Below, piece by piece: positions 7,575 through 26,483 of a stretch of DNA of 32,264 nucleotides; position 1 is the first letter of the stretch; each line of letters starts with the position of its first letter. The stretch is from a virus. Taxonomy: Duplodnaviria; Caudoviricetes. Below the pieces are notes generated by a model. The model had not been told where the DNA came from and searched no databases. It was given only the letters and a program-made list of their open reading frames with translations. The DNA lies in the IMG/VR virus record IMGVR_UViG_3300014613_000068, positions 1 to 32,264 of that record, one strand, 5' to 3'. The position numbers were made by a program, and so were the translations under genes.

Positions 7575-8497
7575 GCGGGATGCTTTCCATGATGAAAGAC
7601 CTGGGCATCTCCATCGCTTCAGAAGGGCACAGGCACTACGGGGAGGGCTGGGTGAATGTCCCCTGCCCGTGGTGTACTGGCTCCTCCGGCTGGCACATGG
7701 GCCTGTCCCTGCCCAGGACTGCGCACTGTTACCGATGCGGGAACCGTCCCCTGGATCAGACCATTGCTCGACTCGCCAACGTGGATGTCAAAGGGGCTCG
7801 GGCACTCATCAGGAAATACCTGCGGGAAGGTCCAGCCCCTGTTCTGAGACGAGAAGGGGAGATCCCCAGGCCAACTTTCATTGACCTTCCTATGGGCGCT
7901 CTACCGCTGTCTGACTGTCCCCGGCATCAAGCCTACCTGGAAGGGAGGGGCTTTGATCCGATGCGCTTAGAACGGCTTTACGGGCTTCTGGGGACGGGTC
8001 TGGCGGGGCCTGATGCCCTTCGGGTCATTGCGCCGGTGTACCTTGATGGACAGCTCGTATCTTTCCAGGGCAGGGACATCACCGGGAAGTCCTCTGCCAA
8101 GTACAAAGCCTGCCCGAAGGAAAAGGAGATCGTCTGCCACAAGGATACGCTCTACGGGGTGGATCTGGTGCCGGGGGACCAATGCGTGATCGTGGAAGGG
8201 ACAGCAGACGCCTGGAGGTTCGGACCTGGGGCTGTGGCTACGTTTGGAGTTGAATGGACACAGTCCCAGGTAGCGATGGTTGCCCGGAAGTTTCGGTCCG
8301 CCGTGGTAGCCTACGACAACGACAAAGCAGGGGAACTACGAGGGAAGGCGCTCATGGACGCCCTGGCCTTTGTCGGGGTGGAAGCGGAGCGGGTCCTGTG
8401 GCCCTCGTCCATCCACGATCCGGGGGAGATGTCTCAGGACGAGGCGGACGAAACGATGATGTGCTTAATGGCACCTTTTGACGAGGAGGGGGATTAA
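7571..8497 (+). CDS. DNA primase (Zn finger plus TOPRIM)
   Basis: CPWC...CYRCG Zn finger; SFQGRDI..KY; IVEGTADA; YDNDKAG; HDPGEM. Confidence 0.9.
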   Translation: MSGMLSMMKDLGISIASEGHRHYGEGWVNVPCPWCTGSSGWHMGLSLPRTAHCYRCGNRPLDQTIARLANVDVKGARALIRKYLREGPAPVLRREGEIPRPTFIDLPMGALPLSDCPRHQAYLEGRGFDPMRLERLYGLLGTGLAGPDALRVIAPVYLDGQLVSFQGRDITGKSSAKYKACPKEKEIVCHKDTLYGVDLVPGDQCVIVEGTADAWRFGPGAVATFGVEWTQSQVAMVARKFRSAVVAYDNDKAGELRGKALMDALAFVGVEAERVLWPSSIHDPGEMSQDEADETMMCLMAPFDEEGD

Positions 8498-8717: not shown

Positions 8718-8746
8718 GGACCCAGGATCATTGGAAATAAAAATGC

Positions 8747-8775
8747 TTTATTTTTCTAAAAAAACATATTATAAA
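8747..8775 (+). promoter_or_regulatory. possible sigma70-type promoter
   Basis: TTTATT-N17-TATAAA in an AT-rich gap. Predicted TSS 8781-8782 coincides with the start of the structured RNA. Confidence 0.5.
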
Positions 8776-8780
8776 GAGGA

Positions 8781-8858
8781 TGGAGTGTGTGTCCCACGGC
8801 CAGGGACAAAGTCTTTCGGGGCTGGGAGCTCATCCCTCCCAGCCCTCCTCCCACTCCA
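8781..8858 (+). ncRNA. three-way-junction RNA, putative C4/CI-like antisense regulator
   Basis: Closing stem TGGAGTG/CACTCCA; hairpin TGTCCC-ACGGCCA-GGGACA; hairpin GGGCTGGGAG-CTCATCC-CTCCCAGCCC. Loop complements lie downstream at 8864, 8961 and 9099-9114. Confidence 0.65.
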
Positions 8859-8958
8859 CGCTCGGGATGAGCGGGTGTTTTGGGTATGCAAAAGATCCCC
8901 TCTAAAAAATCCGGGCGTTCCTATTTACCTAAAGGGCTGGGGAAAAGGAGCGTCACCA

Positions 8959-9318
8959 ATGGATGAGCAAAAACAAAACCAACTTATCATGGAACAAATG
9001 TGCCCGGTCCCTGTGCAGTATGCGCTGGTACGTATTTTTGGGCCGAGCAGGGGGGTTTGGTTTTCGGCTGTTTTACAATTCTACGGACAAGATGAATATG
9101 GCCGTTGGGATGAGGGAAGGGCGGGTTCCAAAATCCCATTCCTCTGTGTAAAAAATCTTGGCTTTAGCGAAAGGAAGCATGAGCTATATATCAAAGAGTT
9201 TCATAAAATGGGATTTTTGGATCGAGCCCCTTCTGAAAAAGGGCTTTACCAAATAGACTTTGAAGCTCTCTCCGATCACATAGAAAAACAGGAGGGCGCT
9301 ACCAATGAAAATAGATAG
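8959..9318 (+). CDS. winged-helix protein, paralogue of the initiator N-terminal domain
   Basis: AAGGAG RBS. LVRIFGPSRGVWF / KHELYIKEFHKMGFLD / YQIDFEALSDHI aligns by eye with the next gene. Confidence 0.7.
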   Translation: MDEQKQNQLIMEQMCPVPVQYALVRIFGPSRGVWFSAVLQFYGQDEYGRWDEGRAGSKIPFLCVKNLGFSERKHELYIKEFHKMGFLDRAPSEKGLYQIDFEALSDHIEKQEGATNENR

Positions 9319-10642
9319 ACGGAAACGATTTCTTTCGTCATACGGTTCCTGGTGGCAAACGCCAAAAAATTTCGTTCGCGTATTCGGACCAAAAAAAGCG
9401 ATCTGGTTGGCGTACGTTATAGATCATTGGAACCGGTTGGAAGATAGCGGAAAGATGGAAAACGAAGATCACTGGTTCTACCTTCTCCAATCTTGGGTCG
9501 AATATACAACCACGATCAGCGCGGCAAAGCATACCCAATTTATCAAGGATTTTCAAGCGCTCGGGATCTTAGAAGTCGAACGGGTAGGGCTTCCCGCAAA
9601 GAATTGGTTCAGGGTAGATCCTGACGCGCTCTCTGAGTATGTAGCGATGAAAGTCGAAGGTCTGGGAGGTCCCCCAAGATCCTTCGATTCAAAGGATCTG
9701 GGTCCGCCGATCGAAAGGATCATTAATAAGAAGATAGATATTAAGAACGAAGTAGACTCTAAAGAGTCTTGTAGGGAACCTTGCGGTTCCTCCGAACCAA
9801 CCGATAAAACATCCTCCCAAGAAGTTCCCCCAAAGATTACGGTCGGCCGAGTCCTTCGCCCCAAAACAAAACCAGGTCCCAAACGCGCCCAGCCAAGACC
9901 GTGTCGCTGGCTGGAGATTTGGAATGATCTTCCCAACGTCCAGCGGCACCGTGACCCGGCCTCCAAGACATACCGAAAAGCAAAGCGATACATCGCCCAG
10001 CTTTTGGACGGGTCCTTTGCCGCCTCCAATCCAATCTCGCCCGCGTTCCTGGAGAAGCACAAGGTCGGGATTGCTATGCTCCGAAGGAGGTGGACAGAGA
10101 GATCCGTCGAAGAAGGACTTCGGCTCCTGTCGAATCTCCTGACCCCTGGATATTGGCCGGAGGATAAAAGCGGGCTTCCACGGGATCTCCCAACGCTGAT
10201 ATTCAATCCCCGGACCCAATCGAGTTTGCTGATGATGGTGATGACGAAGGAACCGGGGCTTTTGAAGTCCTTGCGCAAGGTGGAGGTCCAGGAAGACAAG
10301 CACGAAAACGCCACGGCTGCCCTGGTGCCGTTGTTCACCGCCGGGAATGGTCCGGACATAGGAAAGATGCCCATTGATGATCGGAATACGCTGATAACGA
10401 CGGTATCCGGTATAATGCAATGGCATAGGCGAGTAAAGCCGGACCGAGGGGGCTGGTGGGGACACCATTACAGATCCGGGACGACGTTCGTCAAAGGCTA
10501 CGCCGAGTTCCTGGATCATAGGGGATTTCAACCCGGGCCGCCAAAGGTTTTGGCGCCGGGTGGGAAGTGGTTCCAGGGGTATTTGGAGGACATATCGGAC
10601 AGGTTATTCCAAGGACAATGGATTCCACGGGCTGGAGAATAA
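9305..10642 (+). CDS. putative replication initiator / replisome organiser (N-terminal wHTH)
   Basis: FVRVFGPKKAIWL..WFYL..QFIKDFQALGILEVERVGLPAKNWFRVD, typical of phage initiator wHTH domains. Located between primase and DnaB; contains internal repeats. Confidence 0.7.
   Translation: MKIDRRKRFLSSYGSWWQTPKNFVRVFGPKKAIWLAYVIDHWNRLEDSGKMENEDHWFYLLQSWVEYTTTISAAKHTQFIKDFQALGILEVERVGLPAKNWFRVDPDALSEYVAMKVEGLGGPPRSFDSKDLGPPIERIINKKIDIKNEVDSKESCREPCGSSEPTDKTSSQEVPPKITVGRVLRPKTKPGPKRAQPRPCRWLEIWNDLPNVQRHRDPASKTYRKAKRYIAQLLDGSFAASNPISPAFLEKHKVGIAMLRRRWTERSVEEGLRLLSNLLTPGYWPEDKSGLPRDLPTLIFNPRTQSSLLMMVMTKEPGLLKSLRKVEVQEDKHENATAALVPLFTAGNGPDIGKMPIDDRNTLITTVSGIMQWHRRVKPDRGGWWGHHYRSGTTFVKGYAEFLDHRGFQPGPPKVLAPGGKWFQGYLEDISDRLFQGQWIPRAGE
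9654..9790. other. putative replication origin inside the initiator gene
   Basis: Four TCGAAGGATCT-like units (9654, 9677 inverted, 9689, 9711), an A-rich tract at about 9722-9747, and palindromes AGACTCT/AGAGTCT and GGAACC/GGTTCC. Confidence 0.55.
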
Positions 10643-10645
10643 AGC

Positions 10646-12166
10646 ATGAGGGTACAGAGGCAGAAGGCAGACGTTGATGCAGAACGCAGGCTGGTCACCG
10701 GGATGATCGTGGACACGCGGTTTCTTTCCGGGATCGCTCCGATTATCAGAGAAGAACTTCTCAGAACCCCATATGCCAAGACGGTCGCCAACTGGTGCCT
10801 GGATTACCATGCCAAGTACGGCGAAGCACCGGGTCGGACAATCCAAGACCTGTTTGAGTCCCATGCCAGGGGCGGCAGGCTGGATGAGGATCAGGCGGAC
10901 CTTATCGGCAGGATGCTCCAGGACCTTTCCAGGCGGTGGGAAGGGGAACAGGACGAAGCCTTCAATGCTCCGTATGAGCTGGACAAGGCCGAGCGGTATA
11001 TCCGGGAGCGTTCCCTGGACGCGGTGATGTCAGACATTAAGGCTTTCCTCTCACAAGGGGATCTGGAGCAGGCTGAGGCGGCCGTAGGCGGGTTCCGTCG
11101 GGCTGCTCGCCCTGAATCAAGGGGATTGAATCCTTTGGACCCCGCCGTGGCAATGGCCGCGTTTACCGGCAAGGATGAGGAAGCCTTGTTTCAGCTCCCC
11201 GGAGACCTCGGGCGGATGCTTGGTCCATTCTGCCGGGAACAGCTTTGGGCGGTGTTGGCTCCTCAGAAGCGGGGGAAGTCGTGGTGGCTGGTTGAGTGCG
11301 CGATGCGGGCGGTTCTGGCCGGCCTTTCCGTCCTGTTCGTTTCCCTGGAGCTTTCGGAGCTGGCTGTGATCCGGCGATTTTATTCAAACATCTGCGGGCT
11401 TCCATCCGAGCGCCATGCCGGTGCGACTCAGATCCCGGTCTGGGACTGCCTGACGAATCAGATGGGGGATTGTGATAGGGGTTGTGGTGTCCGTCTCTTG
11501 GGAAAGGATGATGAACGCCCGAAGATATCACCAAAGGGATACGGCCCATGCTCGGCTTGTCGCGGGACGGATGAGTGGCAGGCAGCAACGTGGTTCCGGA
11601 CGGAGGATCTCCCACCCTTGACCGGTTCCAGGGCGGTGAAGAAAGCCAAGGCCCTTCTTGGTCAATACGTCAGGGGCGGGCGCTTGCGGGTGATGCGCCT
11701 TCCATCTGGTCGGGTGACGATGCAGGAATTCTTGGCGATCCTGGACAATCTGGAGTATTACGACAAGTTGGTGCCAGATGTGATTGTGACCGACTTCGCG
11801 GACAAGTTCGCCAGGGATACCAAGATGGAATACAGGCACGGGATCGCCGACATTTGGGAGCAGCATAAGGCCATATCCCAGGAACGCCGGTGTTTGGTTT
11901 TGACAGCTTCCCAGGCGAACACGATTCGGTCTGGGAAGGACGCGGGACAGGGTTCATGGGCAGAGGATATCAGGAAGTTTGGGGAGCTGGACGGAGCCTG
12001 GGCATTGAACCAGACGCCTACGGAACGAGCAGAGGGGATCATGCGGGTGCCGGTGATCGGGATTCGGGAGGACGATTTTGATATGCTGGGGCAAGCGATC
12101 GTCCTGGAACAGAAGCGGATTGGTCGTCCATATTTGGATTCTCACTGGGGGGGGCTGGCGAAATGA
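10646..12166 (+). CDS. DnaB-like replicative helicase
   Basis: Walker A APQKRGKS; FVSLELS; VIVTDFAD; LTASQAN; AEDIRK. Confidence 0.85.
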   Translation: MRVQRQKADVDAERRLVTGMIVDTRFLSGIAPIIREELLRTPYAKTVANWCLDYHAKYGEAPGRTIQDLFESHARGGRLDEDQADLIGRMLQDLSRRWEGEQDEAFNAPYELDKAERYIRERSLDAVMSDIKAFLSQGDLEQAEAAVGGFRRAARPESRGLNPLDPAVAMAAFTGKDEEALFQLPGDLGRMLGPFCREQLWAVLAPQKRGKSWWLVECAMRAVLAGLSVLFVSLELSELAVIRRFYSNICGLPSERHAGATQIPVWDCLTNQMGDCDRGCGVRLLGKDDERPKISPKGYGPCSACRGTDEWQAATWFRTEDLPPLTGSRAVKKAKALLGQYVRGGRLRVMRLPSGRVTMQEFLAILDNLEYYDKLVPDVIVTDFADKFARDTKMEYRHGIADIWEQHKAISQERRCLVLTASQANTIRSGKDAGQGSWAEDIRKFGELDGAWALNQTPTERAEGIMRVPVIGIREDDFDMLGQAIVLEQKRIGRPYLDSHWGGLAK

Positions 12167-17355: not shown

Positions 17356-20007
17356 ATGGCCCGTAAAGGCTTCTTCAAGGCCAATGAGATCGCCCCAGCA
17401 CCCCAGGCATGGGGTCAGGGGACAAAGGCCGCCCAGGACCCTTGTGGGGCCTGTGGATTGGGTTCTGGGTGCTTGTCTCCGATGATACCGGCGGGTGGAG
17501 GAGGGCGGCTCGGGATTCTTGTCATCGGGGAAGCTCCCGGCCCAGAGGAAGATAAGCGGAGCGATCCGGGCCGTGGCCTGGGAGTGCATTTTGTTGGGCG
17601 GGACGGGAACCTGCTCGCAGAGGGTCTCAGGCCCGCCGGTGTACGGGATATTCAAAAGGATCTGCGCTTCACCAACGCAGTCTACTGCCGCCCATCTGAA
17701 AACAAGACCCCGACTGATCGTCAGATTGCTCTTTGCCGGTCCCACGTGTTCCAGGCGATCCAGGAGTTCAAGCCGAAAAAGATCATCCTTCTCGGGATGT
17801 CCGCGATCAAATCCTTGTACGGAGAGTTCAACGATATCGCAAGCAACGGGATCGGTCCTTGGATTGGTCGGGCGGTTCCTGATATGCGGTTTGGGGCCTG
17901 GGTATATCCGGTGTGGGAGCCGGGGTTTATTATCTCGGCGGGGCATTACGATGAAGTGATTCCACGAATATGGGATGAACACCTCCAGGGGGCCGTAGAG
18001 CATGATGCCCCTTTCCCGGAGATGTGGCGGGACGATCTGAGCTCTGTTCGGATATTGGATAGGCGGGAAGCGGTTCAGTATCTTTCGGCCTTAGCGCAGA
18101 AGACCGGGATTCGGATTGCTTTTGACTACGAGACAACGGGCCTGCGTCCATATGCGCCTGGGCAGAGGGTTTGGTCAATCGGGGTGGCCGAAGGCCCGGA
18201 TTCGGCGGTTGTTTTTCATTGGCACGAATCTCTCCAATATCCGTGGTCAGCGGTAATGGAAAGTGAACGAATCGCCAAGCTCGCGCATAACATGAAGTTC
18301 GAGGATCTTTGGACGCGGGATTGTCTTGGGATTGAACCTCGGAGCTGGTCTCGTTGCACGATGGTGATGGAGCACGTCCTGGACAACGGACCAAGCACAA
18401 AGGGGTTGAAGTTCCAAGCGGCGGTTCGGTTTGGCGCTTTTGGATATGGGGATGAAATATCGAAGTTCCTCAAGGGTCGGGAATCAGACGGTAAGGAAAG
18501 CAAATCCTCCAACGCCTTGAATTGGATTGATCAAGCTCCCCAGGCAGAGGTCCTCCGGTATAATGGGCTGGATGCAATGCTTACGTTCCGGCTGGCAGAC
18601 GACCAGGACAGGCGGCTTGGAGCGATGAGAAACGGTGGTTCTTTGTCGAACGCATATGGGCTCCTTCACGAGGGGAGTTTGACGCTTTCTCGCGTAGAGT
18701 CTGCCGGGATTTGCGTGGATCTTGATTGGTACGGTTCGGAGGCCGAACGTCTTGACCAGGAGATCATAAGGCTGGAGGCCCTGGTCCGGACAGATCCGCA
18801 GGTTGTCAAATGGGAAGCAAGTTCAGGGAAGCAATTCAATCCCGGTTCGCCCGTTGCCATGAGGGACGTTCTTTTCGGGAAGGGATTCTATGGGCTGAAG
18901 CCGGTCAAGAAAACAGCGAAGGCCAAGGCCGCCAGCGTGGATGAATCCGTGATGGATGAGGTGGCAAAGTCCGTCCCTTTTGCGGCTGCGGCTGTCCGTC
19001 TCTCAAAGTCGAAAAAGACACGGAACACATATCTTGAGGGCTTTACCCGAGAGCAATGGGAAGGGCTTCTTCATCCGTCTTTCAACCTACATCTTGTTCG
19101 GACTTACCGAAGCAGCTCAGACCACCCGAATTTTCAGAACGTCCCCCGGAAAGATGAGGAAGCTGGGAAGGCGACTCGGTCAGGGATCGTTCCATCGGAA
19201 GGTAGGGTCCTTCTGGAGGTGGATTATTCCGGGATCGAGGTCCGGATGGAGGCGTGTAATACGAAGGACACTGCATTGATAAAGTATTTGTCTGATCCGG
19301 GGAGTGGGGATATGCACCGGGATCAGGCGATGGAATTATTCTTTCTGGGGCCGGAGGCTGTTCCAAAACCTTTGCGAGATGTGGCGAAGTCGTCTTTCGT
19401 CTTTGCCTCGTTTTACGGGTCCTATTGGAAGCAGACCGGCACGGATATGTGGGGTCATATCGCGGATATGGCCTTGGGAGACGGAACACCGGTTCGGGAG
19501 CATCTGGCAGATCGCGATATAAACAACGAGGACGGCTTTCTGCGACATGTCAAACGGGTGGAGTATCGCCTGTGGCGGAAGTTCGCCGGGGTTAAGAAGT
19601 TCCAGGACGAGATCCAAGCTCGATATAAACGGGACGGCTTCATTGACCTCCTGACGGGATTCAGGTGCTGGGGTCCGTTGAGCCGGAATGAGCTTTTCAA
19701 CTATCCGAACCAGGGGCCGGGATTCCATTGTCTCTTGTGGTCGATGAATCGTATTTACCGGGAGATCCAGGCAGCCGGGATGGATTCCCTTATGGTGGGA
19801 CAGATTCATGATTCTATCGTGTTTGACGCCGTTCCAGACGAGGTTCCTGATCTGATGTGCATGGTGCAAAGGGTCATGTGTGAGGACATCCGAGAGGCTT
19901 GGCCGTGGATCATTGTTCCGTTAGAGATCGAGACGGACGCAACAGCGATAGATGGAAATTGGTGGGAGAAGCATCTTTTACCGGAGCCGTGGAACCTGGG
20001 GGATTGA
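17356..20007 (+). CDS. family A DNA polymerase with N-terminal family-4 UDG-like domain (SPO1-type)
   Basis: CGAC..GEAPG..FVGRDG..TNAVYCRP; exonuclease FDYETTG, AHNMKFE, YNGLDA; polymerase VDYSGIE, RDVAK..F...YG, QIHDS. Confidence 0.93.
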   Translation: MARKGFFKANEIAPAPQAWGQGTKAAQDPCGACGLGSGCLSPMIPAGGGGRLGILVIGEAPGPEEDKRSDPGRGLGVHFVGRDGNLLAEGLRPAGVRDIQKDLRFTNAVYCRPSENKTPTDRQIALCRSHVFQAIQEFKPKKIILLGMSAIKSLYGEFNDIASNGIGPWIGRAVPDMRFGAWVYPVWEPGFIISAGHYDEVIPRIWDEHLQGAVEHDAPFPEMWRDDLSSVRILDRREAVQYLSALAQKTGIRIAFDYETTGLRPYAPGQRVWSIGVAEGPDSAVVFHWHESLQYPWSAVMESERIAKLAHNMKFEDLWTRDCLGIEPRSWSRCTMVMEHVLDNGPSTKGLKFQAAVRFGAFGYGDEISKFLKGRESDGKESKSSNALNWIDQAPQAEVLRYNGLDAMLTFRLADDQDRRLGAMRNGGSLSNAYGLLHEGSLTLSRVESAGICVDLDWYGSEAERLDQEIIRLEALVRTDPQVVKWEASSGKQFNPGSPVAMRDVLFGKGFYGLKPVKKTAKAKAASVDESVMDEVAKSVPFAAAAVRLSKSKKTRNTYLEGFTREQWEGLLHPSFNLHLVRTYRSSSDHPNFQNVPRKDEEAGKATRSGIVPSEGRVLLEVDYSGIEVRMEACNTKDTALIKYLSDPGSGDMHRDQAMELFFLGPEAVPKPLRDVAKSSFVFASFYGSYWKQTGTDMWGHIADMALGDGTPVREHLADRDINNEDGFLRHVKRVEYRLWRKFAGVKKFQDEIQARYKRDGFIDLLTGFRCWGPLSRNELFNYPNQGPGFHCLLWSMNRIYREIQAAGMDSLMVGQIHDSIVFDAVPDEVPDLMCMVQRVMCEDIREAWPWIIVPLEIETDATAIDGNWWEKHLLPEPWNLGD

Positions 20008-20212: not shown

Positions 20213-22270
20213 ATGCCGTTGCATCTGAGTTACAGGCCGGAGAAATGGGAAGACCTTGTTGGGAATGCGGGAACGGTATCAGCCTTGCGGTCCGTCCTCT
20301 CCAACACAGACTGCCCTCATTCATACCTCTTCCAGGGACCAACCGGATGTGGCAAGACAACCCTCGCCAGGATCGTGGCTCGGGAGATTGGATGTGATGA
20401 ACGGGATCTCCTGGAGCTGAACGCCGCCGAAGCTCGTGGGATAGATACTGCCCGTGGGATTATTGAGCGGATGCGGTACAAGCCTGCCTGGGGAAAGTCC
20501 CGCGTATTCCTCCTCGATGAATGTTTTTCTGGGGGTTCCCTTGTGCGTACTGTTGGAGGGTCTGTTGAGATTCAGCATATTATTCCGGGGGATTTTGTAT
20601 TCAACATTGCGGGGAAAAGTCGCGTGGAGGAAGTATTTAAGAATAGAGTTCCTCTTCAAAACGTTGTTCGATTATGTTTTTCAGATGGGTCTGTTATATT
20701 TTGCTCTAAGGATCATTTGTTTTTGACGTGTGCGGGTTGGGTTAAGGCAAAGGCGTTAAAAAAAGAATTGATTTTGAAATTCAATAGTAGTATATTGTTA
20801 AGCGGGGACCAACGAAAGGAGATTAAAAATGGAAGATCGGGTATGCATTTATTGCGGAAACAGTTACCGGACAAGAAGCAAAACGCAAACGTACTGTTCA
20901 AATTTTTGCAGGAACAGGGCAAGAAAACGAGTGTTACAAAAGGCTTGCGAATGGTGTGGCATAGTTTTTACAACGCGGCGCGCCGGAACATATACGAAGC
21001 GTTTTTGTTCCCCATCATGCGTTGGGAAATGGAGTACGAGCAGACCGGGAAGACGCGAGCTGTTGGTAGCAGCAGGAAAGAAGGGCGGTCAGGCTGTAAT
21101 AGAATCCAGGAAGAAAAATCCAGAGTTGTTTTTGGCGTTAGCGAAAAAAAGTTCCGAGCGCTTGAAGCGGTTCAATCCGATGATGTCCCCGCACGCAGTA
21201 GAGAAAGCGAGGAATACAAAGCATATCAATGGGACGCTTCATGTATGGCCCGGGGAACGTGGTGGAAATGGACACTATACGCGGCCGCAAGAGCTTTTGG
21301 CTGTTTCTTTGGGGTGGCCGATGGAAGTAGTCATATCTTTGGGAGAGCGAAGGTCAGGATTCCCTACGTGCTACAAGGTAGACATCGGGAATCTGGGGTT
21401 GAAGTTGGCGATAGAGGTGGATGGACGGGGACATGGGATGAAAGAAGTTATCTTGAGAGATCAAAAAAAGACATCCGCTCTAAACAAATTAGGTTGGAAA
21501 GTATTGCGTTTTACGAACAAGGATGTACTGACGCGGCTTTCGTGGGTGTTATTGGAGATAAAGAAAGAGATTCGGGCTTTGTAACATTTTATGATTTACA
21601 GGTTGCGGGACATCCGTCTTATTTTGTGGGCGATATTCCCGTACATAATTGTCACAAGGCCACTTCAGATTTCCAGAATGCTCTTTTGAAGTCGATGGAG
21701 GAACCGCCTGACCATGTTTACTTCATCCTCTGCACGACGGAACCGGAGAAGCTCCTCAAGACCGTCCGGGGCCGTTGTTCCGTGTTTGAGGTCCGCCTCT
21801 TGACGAATGACGAGATGGGGGATCTCTTGGATGAAGTGGCCGCTCAGGAGGAAGGGGACTCGCCCCGGATCACGGATGCCGTCATTGATGAGATCATAAA
21901 GTCTGCTCAGGGACATCCCAGGGATGCGCTGGTGCTGCTGGATCAGGTACTTGGTCTGGCGGATGAAGCCGAGATGCTGGCTGCGATCAGATCCTCCGGG
22001 GTAGATGAACGGGAAGTGATCGAGCTTTGCCGCGCCTTGATGAAGGGGGCAAAGTGGCCTCGTGTCCAGGCAATCCTCCAAGGGCTGGCTGCGGACCCGG
22101 AGAAGATACGAAGGGCCGTCTTGGGGTACTGTGGGTCCATCATGGAGCGGGAATCGGATCGGGGGGTGGTCGGTCAGGCGGCTTTGGTGGCAGAGTGTTT
22201 TCGGGAGCCAACATATGATCTGGGGCGTCCGGGGATCATCCTGTCTTGTTTCGACGCCCTTTCCGGATAA
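20213..22270 (+). CDS. clamp loader AAA+ subunit (DnaX gamma/tau-like), intein-containing
   Basis: YRP; GPTGCGKTT; ELNAA..RGID; LLDE|intein|CH; NALLKSMEEPP; TVRGRC; GHPRDA. The spliced product is 309 aa. Confidence 0.92.
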   Translation: MPLHLSYRPEKWEDLVGNAGTVSALRSVLSNTDCPHSYLFQGPTGCGKTTLARIVAREIGCDERDLLELNAAEARGIDTARGIIERMRYKPAWGKSRVFLLDECFSGGSLVRTVGGSVEIQHIIPGDFVFNIAGKSRVEEVFKNRVPLQNVVRLCFSDGSVIFCSKDHLFLTCAGWVKAKALKKELILKFNSSILLSGDQRKEIKNGRSGMHLLRKQLPDKKQNANVLFKFLQEQGKKTSVTKGLRMVWHSFYNAARRNIYEAFLFPIMRWEMEYEQTGKTRAVGSSRKEGRSGCNRIQEEKSRVVFGVSEKKFRALEAVQSDDVPARSRESEEYKAYQWDASCMARGTWWKWTLYAAARAFGCFFGVADGSSHIFGRAKVRIPYVLQGRHRESGVEVGDRGGWTGTWDERSYLERSKKDIRSKQIRLESIAFYEQGCTDAAFVGVIGDKERDSGFVTFYDLQVAGHPSYFVGDIPVHNCHKATSDFQNALLKSMEEPPDHVYFILCTTEPEKLLKTVRGRCSVFEVRLLTNDEMGDLLDEVAAQEEGDSPRITDAVIDEIIKSAQGHPRDALVLLDQVLGLADEAEMLAAIRSSGVDEREVIELCRALMKGAKWPRVQAILQGLAADPEKIRRAVLGYCGSIMERESDRGVVGQAALVAECFREPTYDLGRPGIILSCFDALSG
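20768..20821 (+). promoter_or_regulatory. promoter and RBS for the nested endonuclease, inside the intein coding sequence
   Basis: TTGATT (20768-73), 17 nt, TATATT (20791-96); AAGGAG at 20816-21, 7 nt before ATG 20829. Confidence 0.7.
20829..21584 (+). CDS. Vsr/DUF559-like homing endonuclease with Zn-ribbon repeats, nested in the +1 frame of the intein
   Basis: Two CxxC..YCS/FCSxxC repeats; YKVDIG...LAIEVDGRGH...RDQKK...LGWKVLRFTN. Confidence 0.88.
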   Translation: MEDRVCIYCGNSYRTRSKTQTYCSNFCRNRARKRVLQKACEWCGIVFTTRRAGTYTKRFCSPSCVGKWSTSRPGRRELLVAAGKKGGQAVIESRKKNPELFLALAKKSSERLKRFNPMMSPHAVEKARNTKHINGTLHVWPGERGGNGHYTRPQELLAVSLGWPMEVVISLGERRSGFPTCYKVDIGNLGLKLAIEVDGRGHGMKEVILRDQKKTSALNKLGWKVLRFTNKDVLTRLSWVLLEIKKEIRAL

Positions 22271-24816: not shown

Positions 24817-25876
24817 AAAGAAGGAAGCAGATGTCCCGGCTCAGATCGAGGAAGATGCTCGGGTGGGTCTGGAGAAAGTTCCACCTCCGGACGAGTGGCA
24901 GGGCGCTCCTGTCTCAACTGGCTCAACTCTTTTTGATTTGAGTATCAGTGGGGGCCGGGTTCGCGGAGGCGGGATTCCACCGGGCATCATCATGGTAATC
25001 CTGGGGCCGTCGGGGACTGGAAAAAGCGCCTTTTTGTGTCGAGCGGCCGGGAACGTCAAACGGTCGGGAGGAGAGGTTCGGTACGAAGACCCGGAGTTCC
25101 GCCTTGACCTTGTCCATGCTCGGGAGGCGTATGGGCTGGATCTTGTTGAGGAGGAGGAATACGAAACCCCGGAGACCGTGGTTGGTTTGTTCGACCGGGT
25201 ACACGCCTGGGACCCGAAAGGCCCCGGCCCTCATCTGATGGCGGGTGATTCGTTGGCGGCTTTGTGCGGGAACTCCGAAATCGCGGTTGTGAACAAAAAA
25301 GGGGAAGTGGAACAGCCCGATGGCATGGCCGCAATGAGGAGGGCAGCAGAATTTTCTCAGGGGATGCGTCGAGCGAAGGCCCGGTTCCGGGACTCGAATA
25401 TGATCCTGCTGGCATCCGATCAGACACGGGAGAATCCCCACGCTCTCCCAGGGCAGAAGAAGTGGGCAGAGGGTGGAGGAAAGGCCCTCGAATTTTATCC
25501 TTCTGTTCGGGCGTTCGTTCGGCCAGCCGGGAAGCTGAAGCGTAAGGCAAAGGTGCGAGGAGGGGCTGAGGTCGAGCAAGTCTACGGTGTGCTCGGGGAA
25601 GTGGAAATTATTAAGTCTTCCGTGGATCGCCCGTTCCGAAAGGCCCCGTATCGGATCATCTTTGATTACGGGGTGGACGACATCTCCGCGAACCTCCAGT
25701 GGATCAAGGACATGACGAAGGACACCAAATACTGGACCGGGCATCAGTCCCTTGCGGACGCGGTAGATGAGGTCGAGGAAAAGGATCTGGAGTCGGAGCT
25801 TCGGGAAGAAACCATTGGCTTGTGGGAAGAAATCGAGGCCATGTTCAAGACCGGAAGGAAACGTCAATCATGGTAG
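24803..25876 (+). CDS. RecA/UvsX-like recombinase
   Basis: STGS..DL..GGIPPG; GPSGTGKS; DPEFRLD; DSLAAL; DQTRE; GGKALEFYPSVR. Confidence 0.9.
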   Translation: MRELKKKEADVPAQIEEDARVGLEKVPPPDEWQGAPVSTGSTLFDLSISGGRVRGGGIPPGIIMVILGPSGTGKSAFLCRAAGNVKRSGGEVRYEDPEFRLDLVHAREAYGLDLVEEEEYETPETVVGLFDRVHAWDPKGPGPHLMAGDSLAALCGNSEIAVVNKKGEVEQPDGMAAMRRAAEFSQGMRRAKARFRDSNMILLASDQTRENPHALPGQKKWAEGGGKALEFYPSVRAFVRPAGKLKRKAKVRGGAEVEQVYGVLGEVEIIKSSVDRPFRKAPYRIIFDYGVDDISANLQWIKDMTKDTKYWTGHQSLADAVDEVEEKDLESELREETIGLWEEIEAMFKTGRKRQSW

Positions 25877-25895
25877 TTTTTATGGAGGGGGCAGC

Positions 25896-26483
25896 GTGAA
25901 AAAAATCAGTCTGGTAAAATTGGAAGACGCGGAAGCCTACGCGGACCACGAGACCAAAACCTACCGATTTGGCGGACACCTGGAGATTAAATTTTCCTGG
26001 CTTGTAAAGGCTGGGTACTCCATCAAGGCTGAGGGCTTCATTGAGGTTGGGGGCTTCATTGAGGCTGAGGGCTTCATCAAGGCTGAGGGCTTCATCAAGG
26101 CCGGGGATTTCATTGAGGCTGGGGGCTTCATCAAGGCCGGGGATTTCATTGAGGCTGGGGGCTTCATCAAGGCCGGGGGCTTCATCAAGGCCGGGGATTT
26201 CATTGAGGCTGGGGGCTTCATTTTCTCTTTTGTCTTCGACGTGACCTGTACGCTGCTCAAAGGGGTTTCGCAGCTTCCGTTCTGGTGCAAATACTGGGCC
26301 GTAATGCCGCCGCTCTCAAAATGGAGCGAGGAAATTTTGGACGCTTCGAATTGTTGGGATGTCCTACGCTCCCTGCCGAACAGGGAAGAGGCCGAGGAGA
26401 TTTGCGCGTGGGATGGCTGGCACCCGATTTTGAGAGCGCAGCTGGAACTTTTCTTCATGCTTAAAATAGAGGTGATATTGTGA
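25896..26483 (+). CDS. protein with hexapeptide tandem repeats (beta-helix-like)
   Basis: GGAGG RBS plus GTG start; about 11 units of F-I-[KE]-A-[GE]-[GD]. Confidence 0.75.
   Translation: MKKISLVKLEDAEAYADHETKTYRFGGHLEIKFSWLVKAGYSIKAEGFIEVGGFIEAEGFIKAEGFIKAGDFIEAGGFIKAGDFIEAGGFIKAGGFIKAGDFIEAGGFIFSFVFDVTCTLLKGVSQLPFWCKYWAVMPPLSKWSEEILDASNCWDVLRSLPNREEAEEICAWDGWHPILRAQLELFFMLKIEVIL
26022..26222 (+). repeat. 18-bp tandem repeat, about 11 copies, in frame
   Basis: Variants of ATCAAGGCCGGGGATTTC / ATTGAGGCTGGGGGCTTC. Confidence 0.9.

Follow-up and report, generated by a model that had tools for sequence, protein, structure and literature searches.

The locus described here raises the question of what a structured RNA at the head of a phage replication operon pairs with, and what that pairing would do to the genes behind it. 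The window, by which we mean the whole 32,264-nt stretch of DNA analysed, is a virus record that is 39% complete and contains the replication region, in which profile matches identified an SNF2 helicase, a primase, DnaB, a clamp, polymerase A, a clamp loader and a recombinase. The original prediction had likened the RNA to the antisense RNAs C4 and CI, with both of its loops pairing with a tandem site in the downstream gene, and had suggested immunity or copy-number control.

The leader RNA and the operon behind it

The 78-nt structure is present as first described, with the loops ACGGCCA and CTCATCC. A three-way junction is predicted for positions 8781-8858, with a folding energy of -39.4 kcal/mol (z -4.3), and none of 200 shuffled sequences was equally stable (Table 1). 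The loop complements quoted for 9099-9114, for 8961-8968 and for 8864-8872 within the hairpin 8859-8873 are likewise all in the sequence. The claim that the structure begins at a transcription start site stands in part: a promoter-like TTTATT-17-TATAAA precedes it, but the start site is only predicted and scores weakly, the promoter being uncalled by a consensus scan and at the 16% background level in our own scoring. Support for this promoter comes from the homologue L001, in which the region is near-identical. A CTAAAAAA(A/T)C-like word is repeated in the window at 8754-8765, 8900-8911 and 9146-9157; its first copy lies in the promoter spacer, which L001 and L095 share, and is perhaps an operator.

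Table 1. Features of the leader and of the genes that follow it (window positions).
Feature	Position	Strand	Remark
Predicted promoter	8747-8775	+	-35 TTTATT, 17-nt spacer, -10 TATAAA; start near 8781
Three-way-junction leader RNA	8781-8858	+	P1 = 8781-8787/8852-8858; closed junction in 10 of 15 members
P2 hairpin	8790-8808	+	loop ACGGCCA (8796-8802), palindromic core GGCC; putative dimer contact
P3 hairpin	8818-8846	+	guide loop CTCATCC (8829-8835)
P4 hairpin	8859-8873	+	contains the conserved target GGGATGAGC (8864-8872)
SD-like GGGTG	8873-8877	+	8 nt upstream of ATG 8886
26-codon upstream ORF (uORF)	8886-8966	+	stop 8964-8966 overlaps the start of the 119-aa gene; putatively translated
Hairpin, -18.8 kcal/mol	8914-8955	+	inside the uORF; hides SD AGGAG (8946-8950) of the 119-aa gene
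119-aa protein	8959-9318	+	paralogue of the wHTH-like N-terminal domain of the 445-aa protein (26% over 101 aa, E 1e-7)
Second P3-loop complement GGATGAGC	8961-8968	+	over the 119-aa start codon and the uORF stop
Tandem P2 + P3 complement TGGCCGT-T-GGGATGAG	9099-9114	+	inside the 119-aa gene, codons Y-G-R-W-D-E; window only
445-aa O-like replication initiator/helicase-loader-like protein	9305-10642	+	phrog_9773, E 2e-5
DnaB-like helicase	10646-12166	+	profile match

The P4 hairpin is followed by GGTGTTTT and is weak as a terminator (-6.1 kcal/mol; 5 T in 8 nt). The Shine-Dalgarno (SD)-like GGGTG is paired in the alternative folds 8850-8884 (-14.1 kcal/mol) and 8873-8907 (-9.3 kcal/mol), and in alternative leader folds the 3' strand of P1 is able to pair with the first SD. 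In both the window and the related locus L063, P4 follows P1 without any linker.

The leader lies in a non-coding stretch between the primase block and the 119-aa/initiator/DnaB operon, and its position at the head of this operon, as predicted, was borne out by profile matches and by alignment of the paralogue. Homologues of the 445-aa protein match initiator PHROGs. A short wHTH paralogue stands ahead of the full initiator in the relatives L083, L048, L076, L103 and L012, as it does in the window. One contig from run X4, at depth 2.5, agrees with 8735-8922 apart from a single difference and diverges after 8922; the diverging part retains a compatible 3' arm for the hairpin 8914-8955 (pairing by eye), a weak sign that this hairpin may matter. 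Run X3 gave no cover of the locus. At the end of the primase gene (8489-8497), a contig from run X4 carries 88 different letters.

Four further features of the window were recorded. Around the point where the wHTH domain of the 445-aa protein ends (9573-9721), two pairs of weak repeats, of 27 nt and 19 nt, are candidate origin sites. The family A DNA polymerase (17356-20007) is fused to an N-terminal uracil-DNA-glycosylase-family domain, the clamp-loader gene (20213-22270) has an intein-like insertion (PF14890, weak), and an ORF at 25767-26483 has about ten tandem hexapeptide-like repeats of the GFIKAG type with a weak FapA beta-solenoid match.

Covariation of the P3 loop with a site beside the first SD

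Because protein searches gave one relative of the 445-aa protein and no full-length relative of the 119-aa protein, we collected related loci via DnaB and primase alignments. This set holds at least 375 loci, of which at least 184 have an initiator profile match and at least 131 remain after dereplication. The initiator alignment was too divergent to serve as a search profile. BLASTN with the leader matched the promoter alone, MAFFT yielded no structural alignment of the leaders, and a model built from A8 had zero base pairs and was not used; pairs were counted in Python with the loops as anchor. Sequence and Rfam searches miss these leaders because their letters diverge fast and only the pairing pattern survives. 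By eye, a structured leader directly after the promoter was seen in several related loci.

We then scanned blind for units made of a hairpin (stem of at least 6 bp, 5-9-nt loop) followed by an SD and a start codon, ignoring complementarity in choosing them; the settings were fixed after some members had already been seen. In 94 dereplicated initiator-bearing loci, 34 units lay no more than 1.5 kb from the initiator; in 8 of them loop and target matched over at least 6 nt, against a permutation mean of 1.0, and none of 2000 permutations reached 8. Units elsewhere gave such matches in 2 of 126 cases (1.9 expected). Four of the eight matches (L197, L180, L178 and L220) were new and had not been noticed as candidates beforehand. 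A held-out set of 38 loci gave 2 matches in 13 units (0.46 expected; 152 of 2000 permutations), which is non-significant alone; both matches (L301 and L349) carry the same ACCT-target-AGGT hairpin. The family as used below has 15 members, window included, and takes in three 5-nt cases of the blind scan as well as L003 and L190.

What is conserved across the members is the layout and hardly any letters. The -10 box lies 36-48 nt before P3 in 10 of the 15, and five members have no three-way junction. The P3 loop is 6-8 nt long, and its target, 5-9 nt in length and 11-26 nt after P3, finishes at the first G's of the SD; in the window this near site occupies 8864-8872. For most members it forms the loop of P4, a small hairpin with ACCU paired to the AGGU of the SD in its stem. 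The window departs from this, its target overlapping the 3' arm of P4, so that P3 pairing would open P4. Complementarity fills the P3 loop and usually ends at the loop edge. Loop positions 3-5 are Watson-Crick paired with the target in 15/15 members, with four pair types at each position; the match rates of 13/15 and 8/15 are those among members picked for complementarity. Between L001 and L177, whose DnaB proteins are 95% identical, P1 and P2 are kept whereas loop and target differ together (CCTATA/TATAGG and TTGCA/TGCAA), and the same is seen between L180 and L190 (CCGTGAA/TTCACGG and CTATGAC/GTCATAG). P3 stems contain G-U pairs in 9/15 members, which points to an element that works at the RNA level.

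Of the two loop-target pairings expected to covary in related phages, that of loop 2 did so with the near site, and neither loop 1 nor the tandem site followed. We consider it very probable that the P3/target pairing is real and acts on translation initiation. The complement at the start codon of the 119-aa gene occupies a position that most members do not share, although L011 has one at the initiator start.

The element is found in a minority of loci, 15 as against at least 131 dereplicated initiator-bearing loci, and many of the non-member initiator loci have long hairpins and U-runs instead. Two scans of viral contigs for the P4 pattern added no members. The first gave 89 distinct sites, 12 with an upstream hairpin and 6 with at least 5 nt of complementarity (4 known members and 2 hsp20-type leaders); the second gave 87 sites, 7 with a hairpin, of which 2 were known members. 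In a DnaB tree (FastTree, 119 rows, the truncated L017 left out), which we did not use to order events, members are scattered, with 9 changes for 14 rows, and their median DnaB identity is 37%. L220 (974-2150) differs from L232, whose DnaB is 95% identical, in that leader and 238-aa first gene are both missing from L232 at the matching place, which suggests that the cassette is exchanged as a module.

Other leaders of related design were seen in passing. Long attenuator-like hairpins or junctions with a U-run before the SD lie upstream of the initiator cassette in L012, L013, L022, L024, L038, L053, L061, L092, L103, L105, L168, L192, L203, L215 and L218; in the initiator leader of L022 an inner loop matches the 5' leader. 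In the variant leaders L019 (3140-3250), L095 (1950-2045) and L023 (2640-2770), the loop is complementary to the SD itself, and L019 also has a GGCC loop. In the Hsp20 leaders of L441 (1000-1070, PF00011) and L445, both on the + strand, a hairpin loop CCTAA matches TTAGG in the adjoining SD hairpin. Neither Hsp20 leader has a Rfam match, and the same switch logic may possibly operate in these heat-shock leaders.

The palindromic P2 loop and the proposed direction of control

The P2 loop had been predicted to be a second antisense guide. We detected no conserved target for it near or far: downstream complements of at least 6 nt occur in 1/15 members, against a non-cognate rate of 14.8%. What recurs is a palindrome, namely GGCC in the window, L011, L065 and L301 (and in folds of L017), GCGC in L220, L003 and L063, CGCG in L001 and L177, TGCA in L178 and GATC in L197. 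The next upstream hairpin loop contains a palindromic 4-mer in 9/14 kissing units near initiators as against 33/249 controls (Fisher p 3e-5; background 5-24% depending on loop length), in a test that was made post hoc once the pattern had been seen, that scored L017 and L349 as misses and that took in two doubtful units (L092 and L257). In L180 and L190 the nearest hairpin has no palindrome, and most palindromic cores are only 4 nt long. Within one clade (L001, L003 and L178, DnaB 66-74% identical), the symmetry is kept while the letters change between CGCG, GCGC and TGCA. By analogy, we infer that this is what would be expected of a homodimer kissing loop (PMC7357161). Cofolding gave energy gains for the dimer, computed without a control, which we do not count as evidence. 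With the palindrome enriched and downstream complements not, loop 1 appears to behave as a palindrome and not as an antisense guide.

Our preferred reading, to which we give somewhat less than an even chance, is a translational off-switch in which P3 kisses the SD target with the aid of leader-leader P2 pairing. The P3 loop is predicted to pair with the 5-9 nt that end at the first G's of the SD, the step for which covariation was observed, and this pairing would lock the SD in an OFF state. In the weakest step, a P2-P2' kiss between two transcripts would bring P3 of one to P4 of its partner. The outcome would be negative feedback on initiator and DnaB synthesis, with shutting rising with transcript level, and the fast-changing letters of P3 and P4 would give phage specificity. 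In the window the switch would act on the 26-codon uORF, whose translation would open the hairpin over the SD of the 119-aa gene. What directly follows the leader varies among members: in some it is the initiator, in others a short uORF, and in others again a gene that has been inserted (such as T5orf172 in L001).

Both the direction and the trigger of this switch are things we infer. The OFF direction is suggested because the P4 loop coincides with the target in several members (L197, L063, L220 and L003), because the L220 target covers most of its SD and because the L019 loop opposes the SD. It is suggested also by the cobalamin riboswitch, in which a perfectly paired kissing loop brings expression to near background (PMC5028336). 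As for the trigger, a constant lock in cis would need one, and we found no consistent antisense promoter (2/15 members at or under the 5% background level by a crude score, against 9/15 in which the sense promoter stands out at that level), which favours leader-leader-aided repression; so do the rapid loop changes seen between close phages, which would fit recognition of one molecule by another, and a junction geometry that disfavours a kiss in cis with P1 and P4 both closed.

Several observations weigh against this off-switch aided by dimers. The held-out loci are non-significant alone, the palindrome test was post hoc on cores of mostly 4 nt with L180 and L190 lacking one, and a third of the members (5/15) have no three-way junction. 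The window target overlaps a P4 arm that pairing would open, the element is confined to a minority of initiator-bearing loci, and the need for copy-number control is not explained by any lysogeny marker. In about 12 members, moreover, the target does not include the SD core GAGGU/AGGU, an arrangement also seen in the activating pseudoknot of ColIb-P9.

This last point leads to the best-placed alternative, a rather unlikely one in our judgement: an activating pseudoknot in cis of the IncI/IncB kind, in which P3 would pair just 5' of the SD, keep P4 open and turn translation on, with a dimer, a protein or an antisense RNA as the off signal. The target does end where the SD core starts and leaves GAGGU/AGGU free in most members, the overlap with the 3' arm of P4 in the window fits, and the distance between P3 and target would, from its geometry, suit an H-type pseudoknot with P4 open. 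ColIb-P9 has an equal layout on a replication initiator (PMC4705826), and short uORFs follow the leader in 5/15 members. Against it, most targets are the P4 loop and not an arm, so that pairing would not compete with the stem; an antisense promoter is not consistently present; and in L220 the SD is covered.

We consider it unlikely that a repressing kiss is made only within the molecule, to be released by a protein, a ligand, temperature or a co-transcriptional time window. The covariation evidence is identical for this alternative. The P2 hairpins of L011, L220 and L178 are perfect or near-perfect DNA palindromes just past the start site, so that the P2 palindrome is a candidate site, on RNA or DNA, for the initiator or for the wHTH paralogue, which is encoded directly behind the leader. 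The palindrome letters change within a clade while the symmetry stays, however, and the junction linkers fail to place the P3 loop beside the P1 exit, with no linker at all between P1 and P4 in the window and in L063. A family-C junction, which would place the P3 loop beside the P1 exit, was considered and rejected, being unsupported by the linker lengths and by the definition in PMC2952862. With P1 and P4 both closed, a kiss in cis would not be favoured by the junction geometry (linkers, and the definition of family A).

A bolder form of the preferred off-switch is a concentration sensor free of protein and antisense RNA, in which two leaders dock by the palindrome and each locks the ribosome-binding hairpin of the other; we regard this as possible, though doubtful. 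If it is true, initiator and helicase synthesis would drop as genome and transcript numbers rise, and phages with different loop letters would ignore each other.

The distal tandem site and comparison with known systems

The tandem site is rare by chance: one of 100 shuffles of the whole window contained such a site, and 3.46 Mb of other loci contained one. Its position is mid-gene and not near a start, and most of it is predicted to be base-paired. As the working target of the family it found no support in the comparison: no other member has a tandem site of at least 6 nt within 400 nt, so that the window stands alone among 15. Distal 7-nt P3 complements are mildly enriched in 3/14 other members (p about 0.02, several thresholds having been tried). 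In L063 (3462-3535), three 23-nt direct repeats follow the initiator wHTH domain, each with GGCC next to a P3 complement; these are likely origin iterons, and the P2 loop of L063 is not GGCC. The tandem site may be a secondary, lineage-specific site, because distal P3 complements are enriched, because of the L063 repeats and because L011 has a second copy at a start codon.

That a released RNA of about 78 nt acts with both loops on 9099-9114, blocking translation or terminating transcription as C4 and CI do, is therefore improbable. The P4 CI RNA has an upstream target, seqA, and a downstream target, seqC, and causes premature termination before the replication genes. Near the leader we found no upstream target of this kind, the nearest upstream P3 complement being at 301. 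At least 6 U in the 8 nt after P3 are found in 5/15 members; the window has 2. Release of the C4 precursor by RNase P goes with a 3' CCA. At its 5' end it goes with GGW (PMC5320573). The window element starts with GGA and ends with CCA, like C4 (PMC5320573), but begins at the predicted start site, and CCA ends P1 in only 3/10 junctions. The rarity of the tandem site, the distal P3 complements and the L063 repeats speak for the model; the repeats look like iterons, however, and an Rfam covariance search at E up to 10 gave no C4 match, and membership of the C4/CI class is not supported. In the window, no Rfam family reached its gathering threshold, and relaxing the cut-off to E 10 brought up four weak, unrelated matches; at the gathering threshold, 17 related loci (members and neighbours) yielded tRNAs alone, and int-alpA (RF02996) was matched neither in five member records (E up to 1) nor in the window.

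The suggested role in lysogenic immunity found no support either: in five member genomes, of which three are complete, tyrosine integrase, serine recombinase and ParA were all absent. It is therefore likelier that the leader serves feedback in the course of infection, or exclusion between co-infecting phages. That loop and target are inverted half-sites of a DNA operator with incidental hairpins is very improbable: the P3 complement does recur, at 8865, 8961 and 9108 of the window and within the repeats of L063, but the matched letters lie exactly in hairpin loops, the stems have G-U pairs and the initiator gene of the window lacks the motif.

Taken from their pairing patterns, these leaders appear to form a real, uncatalogued RNA family, located on replication operons in environmental phages that encode a polymerase and a helicase of their own. 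We found no description of the element in the literature searched, which was mostly without subscription papers. Fremin et al. list candidates upstream of HTH_36 and Phage_rep_O genes, for example DNAVirus_4859 (PMC10690425), and our family may coincide with one of them. Natural pairs such as L001/L177 are a ready test of specificity. If the palindromic loop drives dimers, translation would be controlled by self-pairing of mRNA leaders, of which we found no phage or plasmid case in the literature searched, and synthetic biology would gain a small, orthogonal part for negative feedback.

Compared with known systems, the leaders resemble P1/P7 C4 (RF01695) and P4 CI in size (about 77 nt), in their three stems, in their origin from the sense strand of the regulated transcript and in having loops that hold phage specificity (PMC5320573, PMC4825925). 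They differ in having one guide loop only and no upstream target, conserved tandem target or conserved CCA end; unlike C4, the window leader is followed by replication genes and no antirepressor gene, and no lysogeny marker was found in the five relatives. Gifsy-1 IsrK is likewise a leader-derived RNA; it acts on the longer version of its own transcript, where translation is coupled through an upstream ORF (PMC4825925), but it activates by helix invasion and we observed no sequence or Rfam likeness. The P2 loop recalls the HIV-1 DIS, MoMuLV and oskar dimers, whose GC-rich self-complementary loops are often flanked by A (PMC7357161); those are eukaryotic or retroviral and serve packaging or transport, whereas here the core is mostly 4 nt and the dimer is predicted.

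In the L5-L13 contact of the cobalamin riboswitch, as in the proposed off-switch, a junction RNA uses one of its loops to kiss a small hairpin further downstream that contains the ribosome-binding site, and so represses (PMC5028336). The leader family differs in that it has no Rfam match or conserved core, its letters vary freely and the kiss is perfectly paired in most members, without a ligand bulge. Unlike the rep pseudoknot of ColIb-P9 and IncI/IncB plasmids, our family belongs to phages, has a three-way junction, a palindromic loop and no consistent antisense promoter, and places its conserved target at the first SD, which is the uORF's own where a uORF follows, and not behind a leader peptide. 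With that system (Inc RNA, RLP/RepY, RepZ) it shares a leader loop complementary to the bases just 5' of a hairpin-held SD, on a replication-initiator operon that sometimes has a leader peptide (PMC4705826, PMC10286972).
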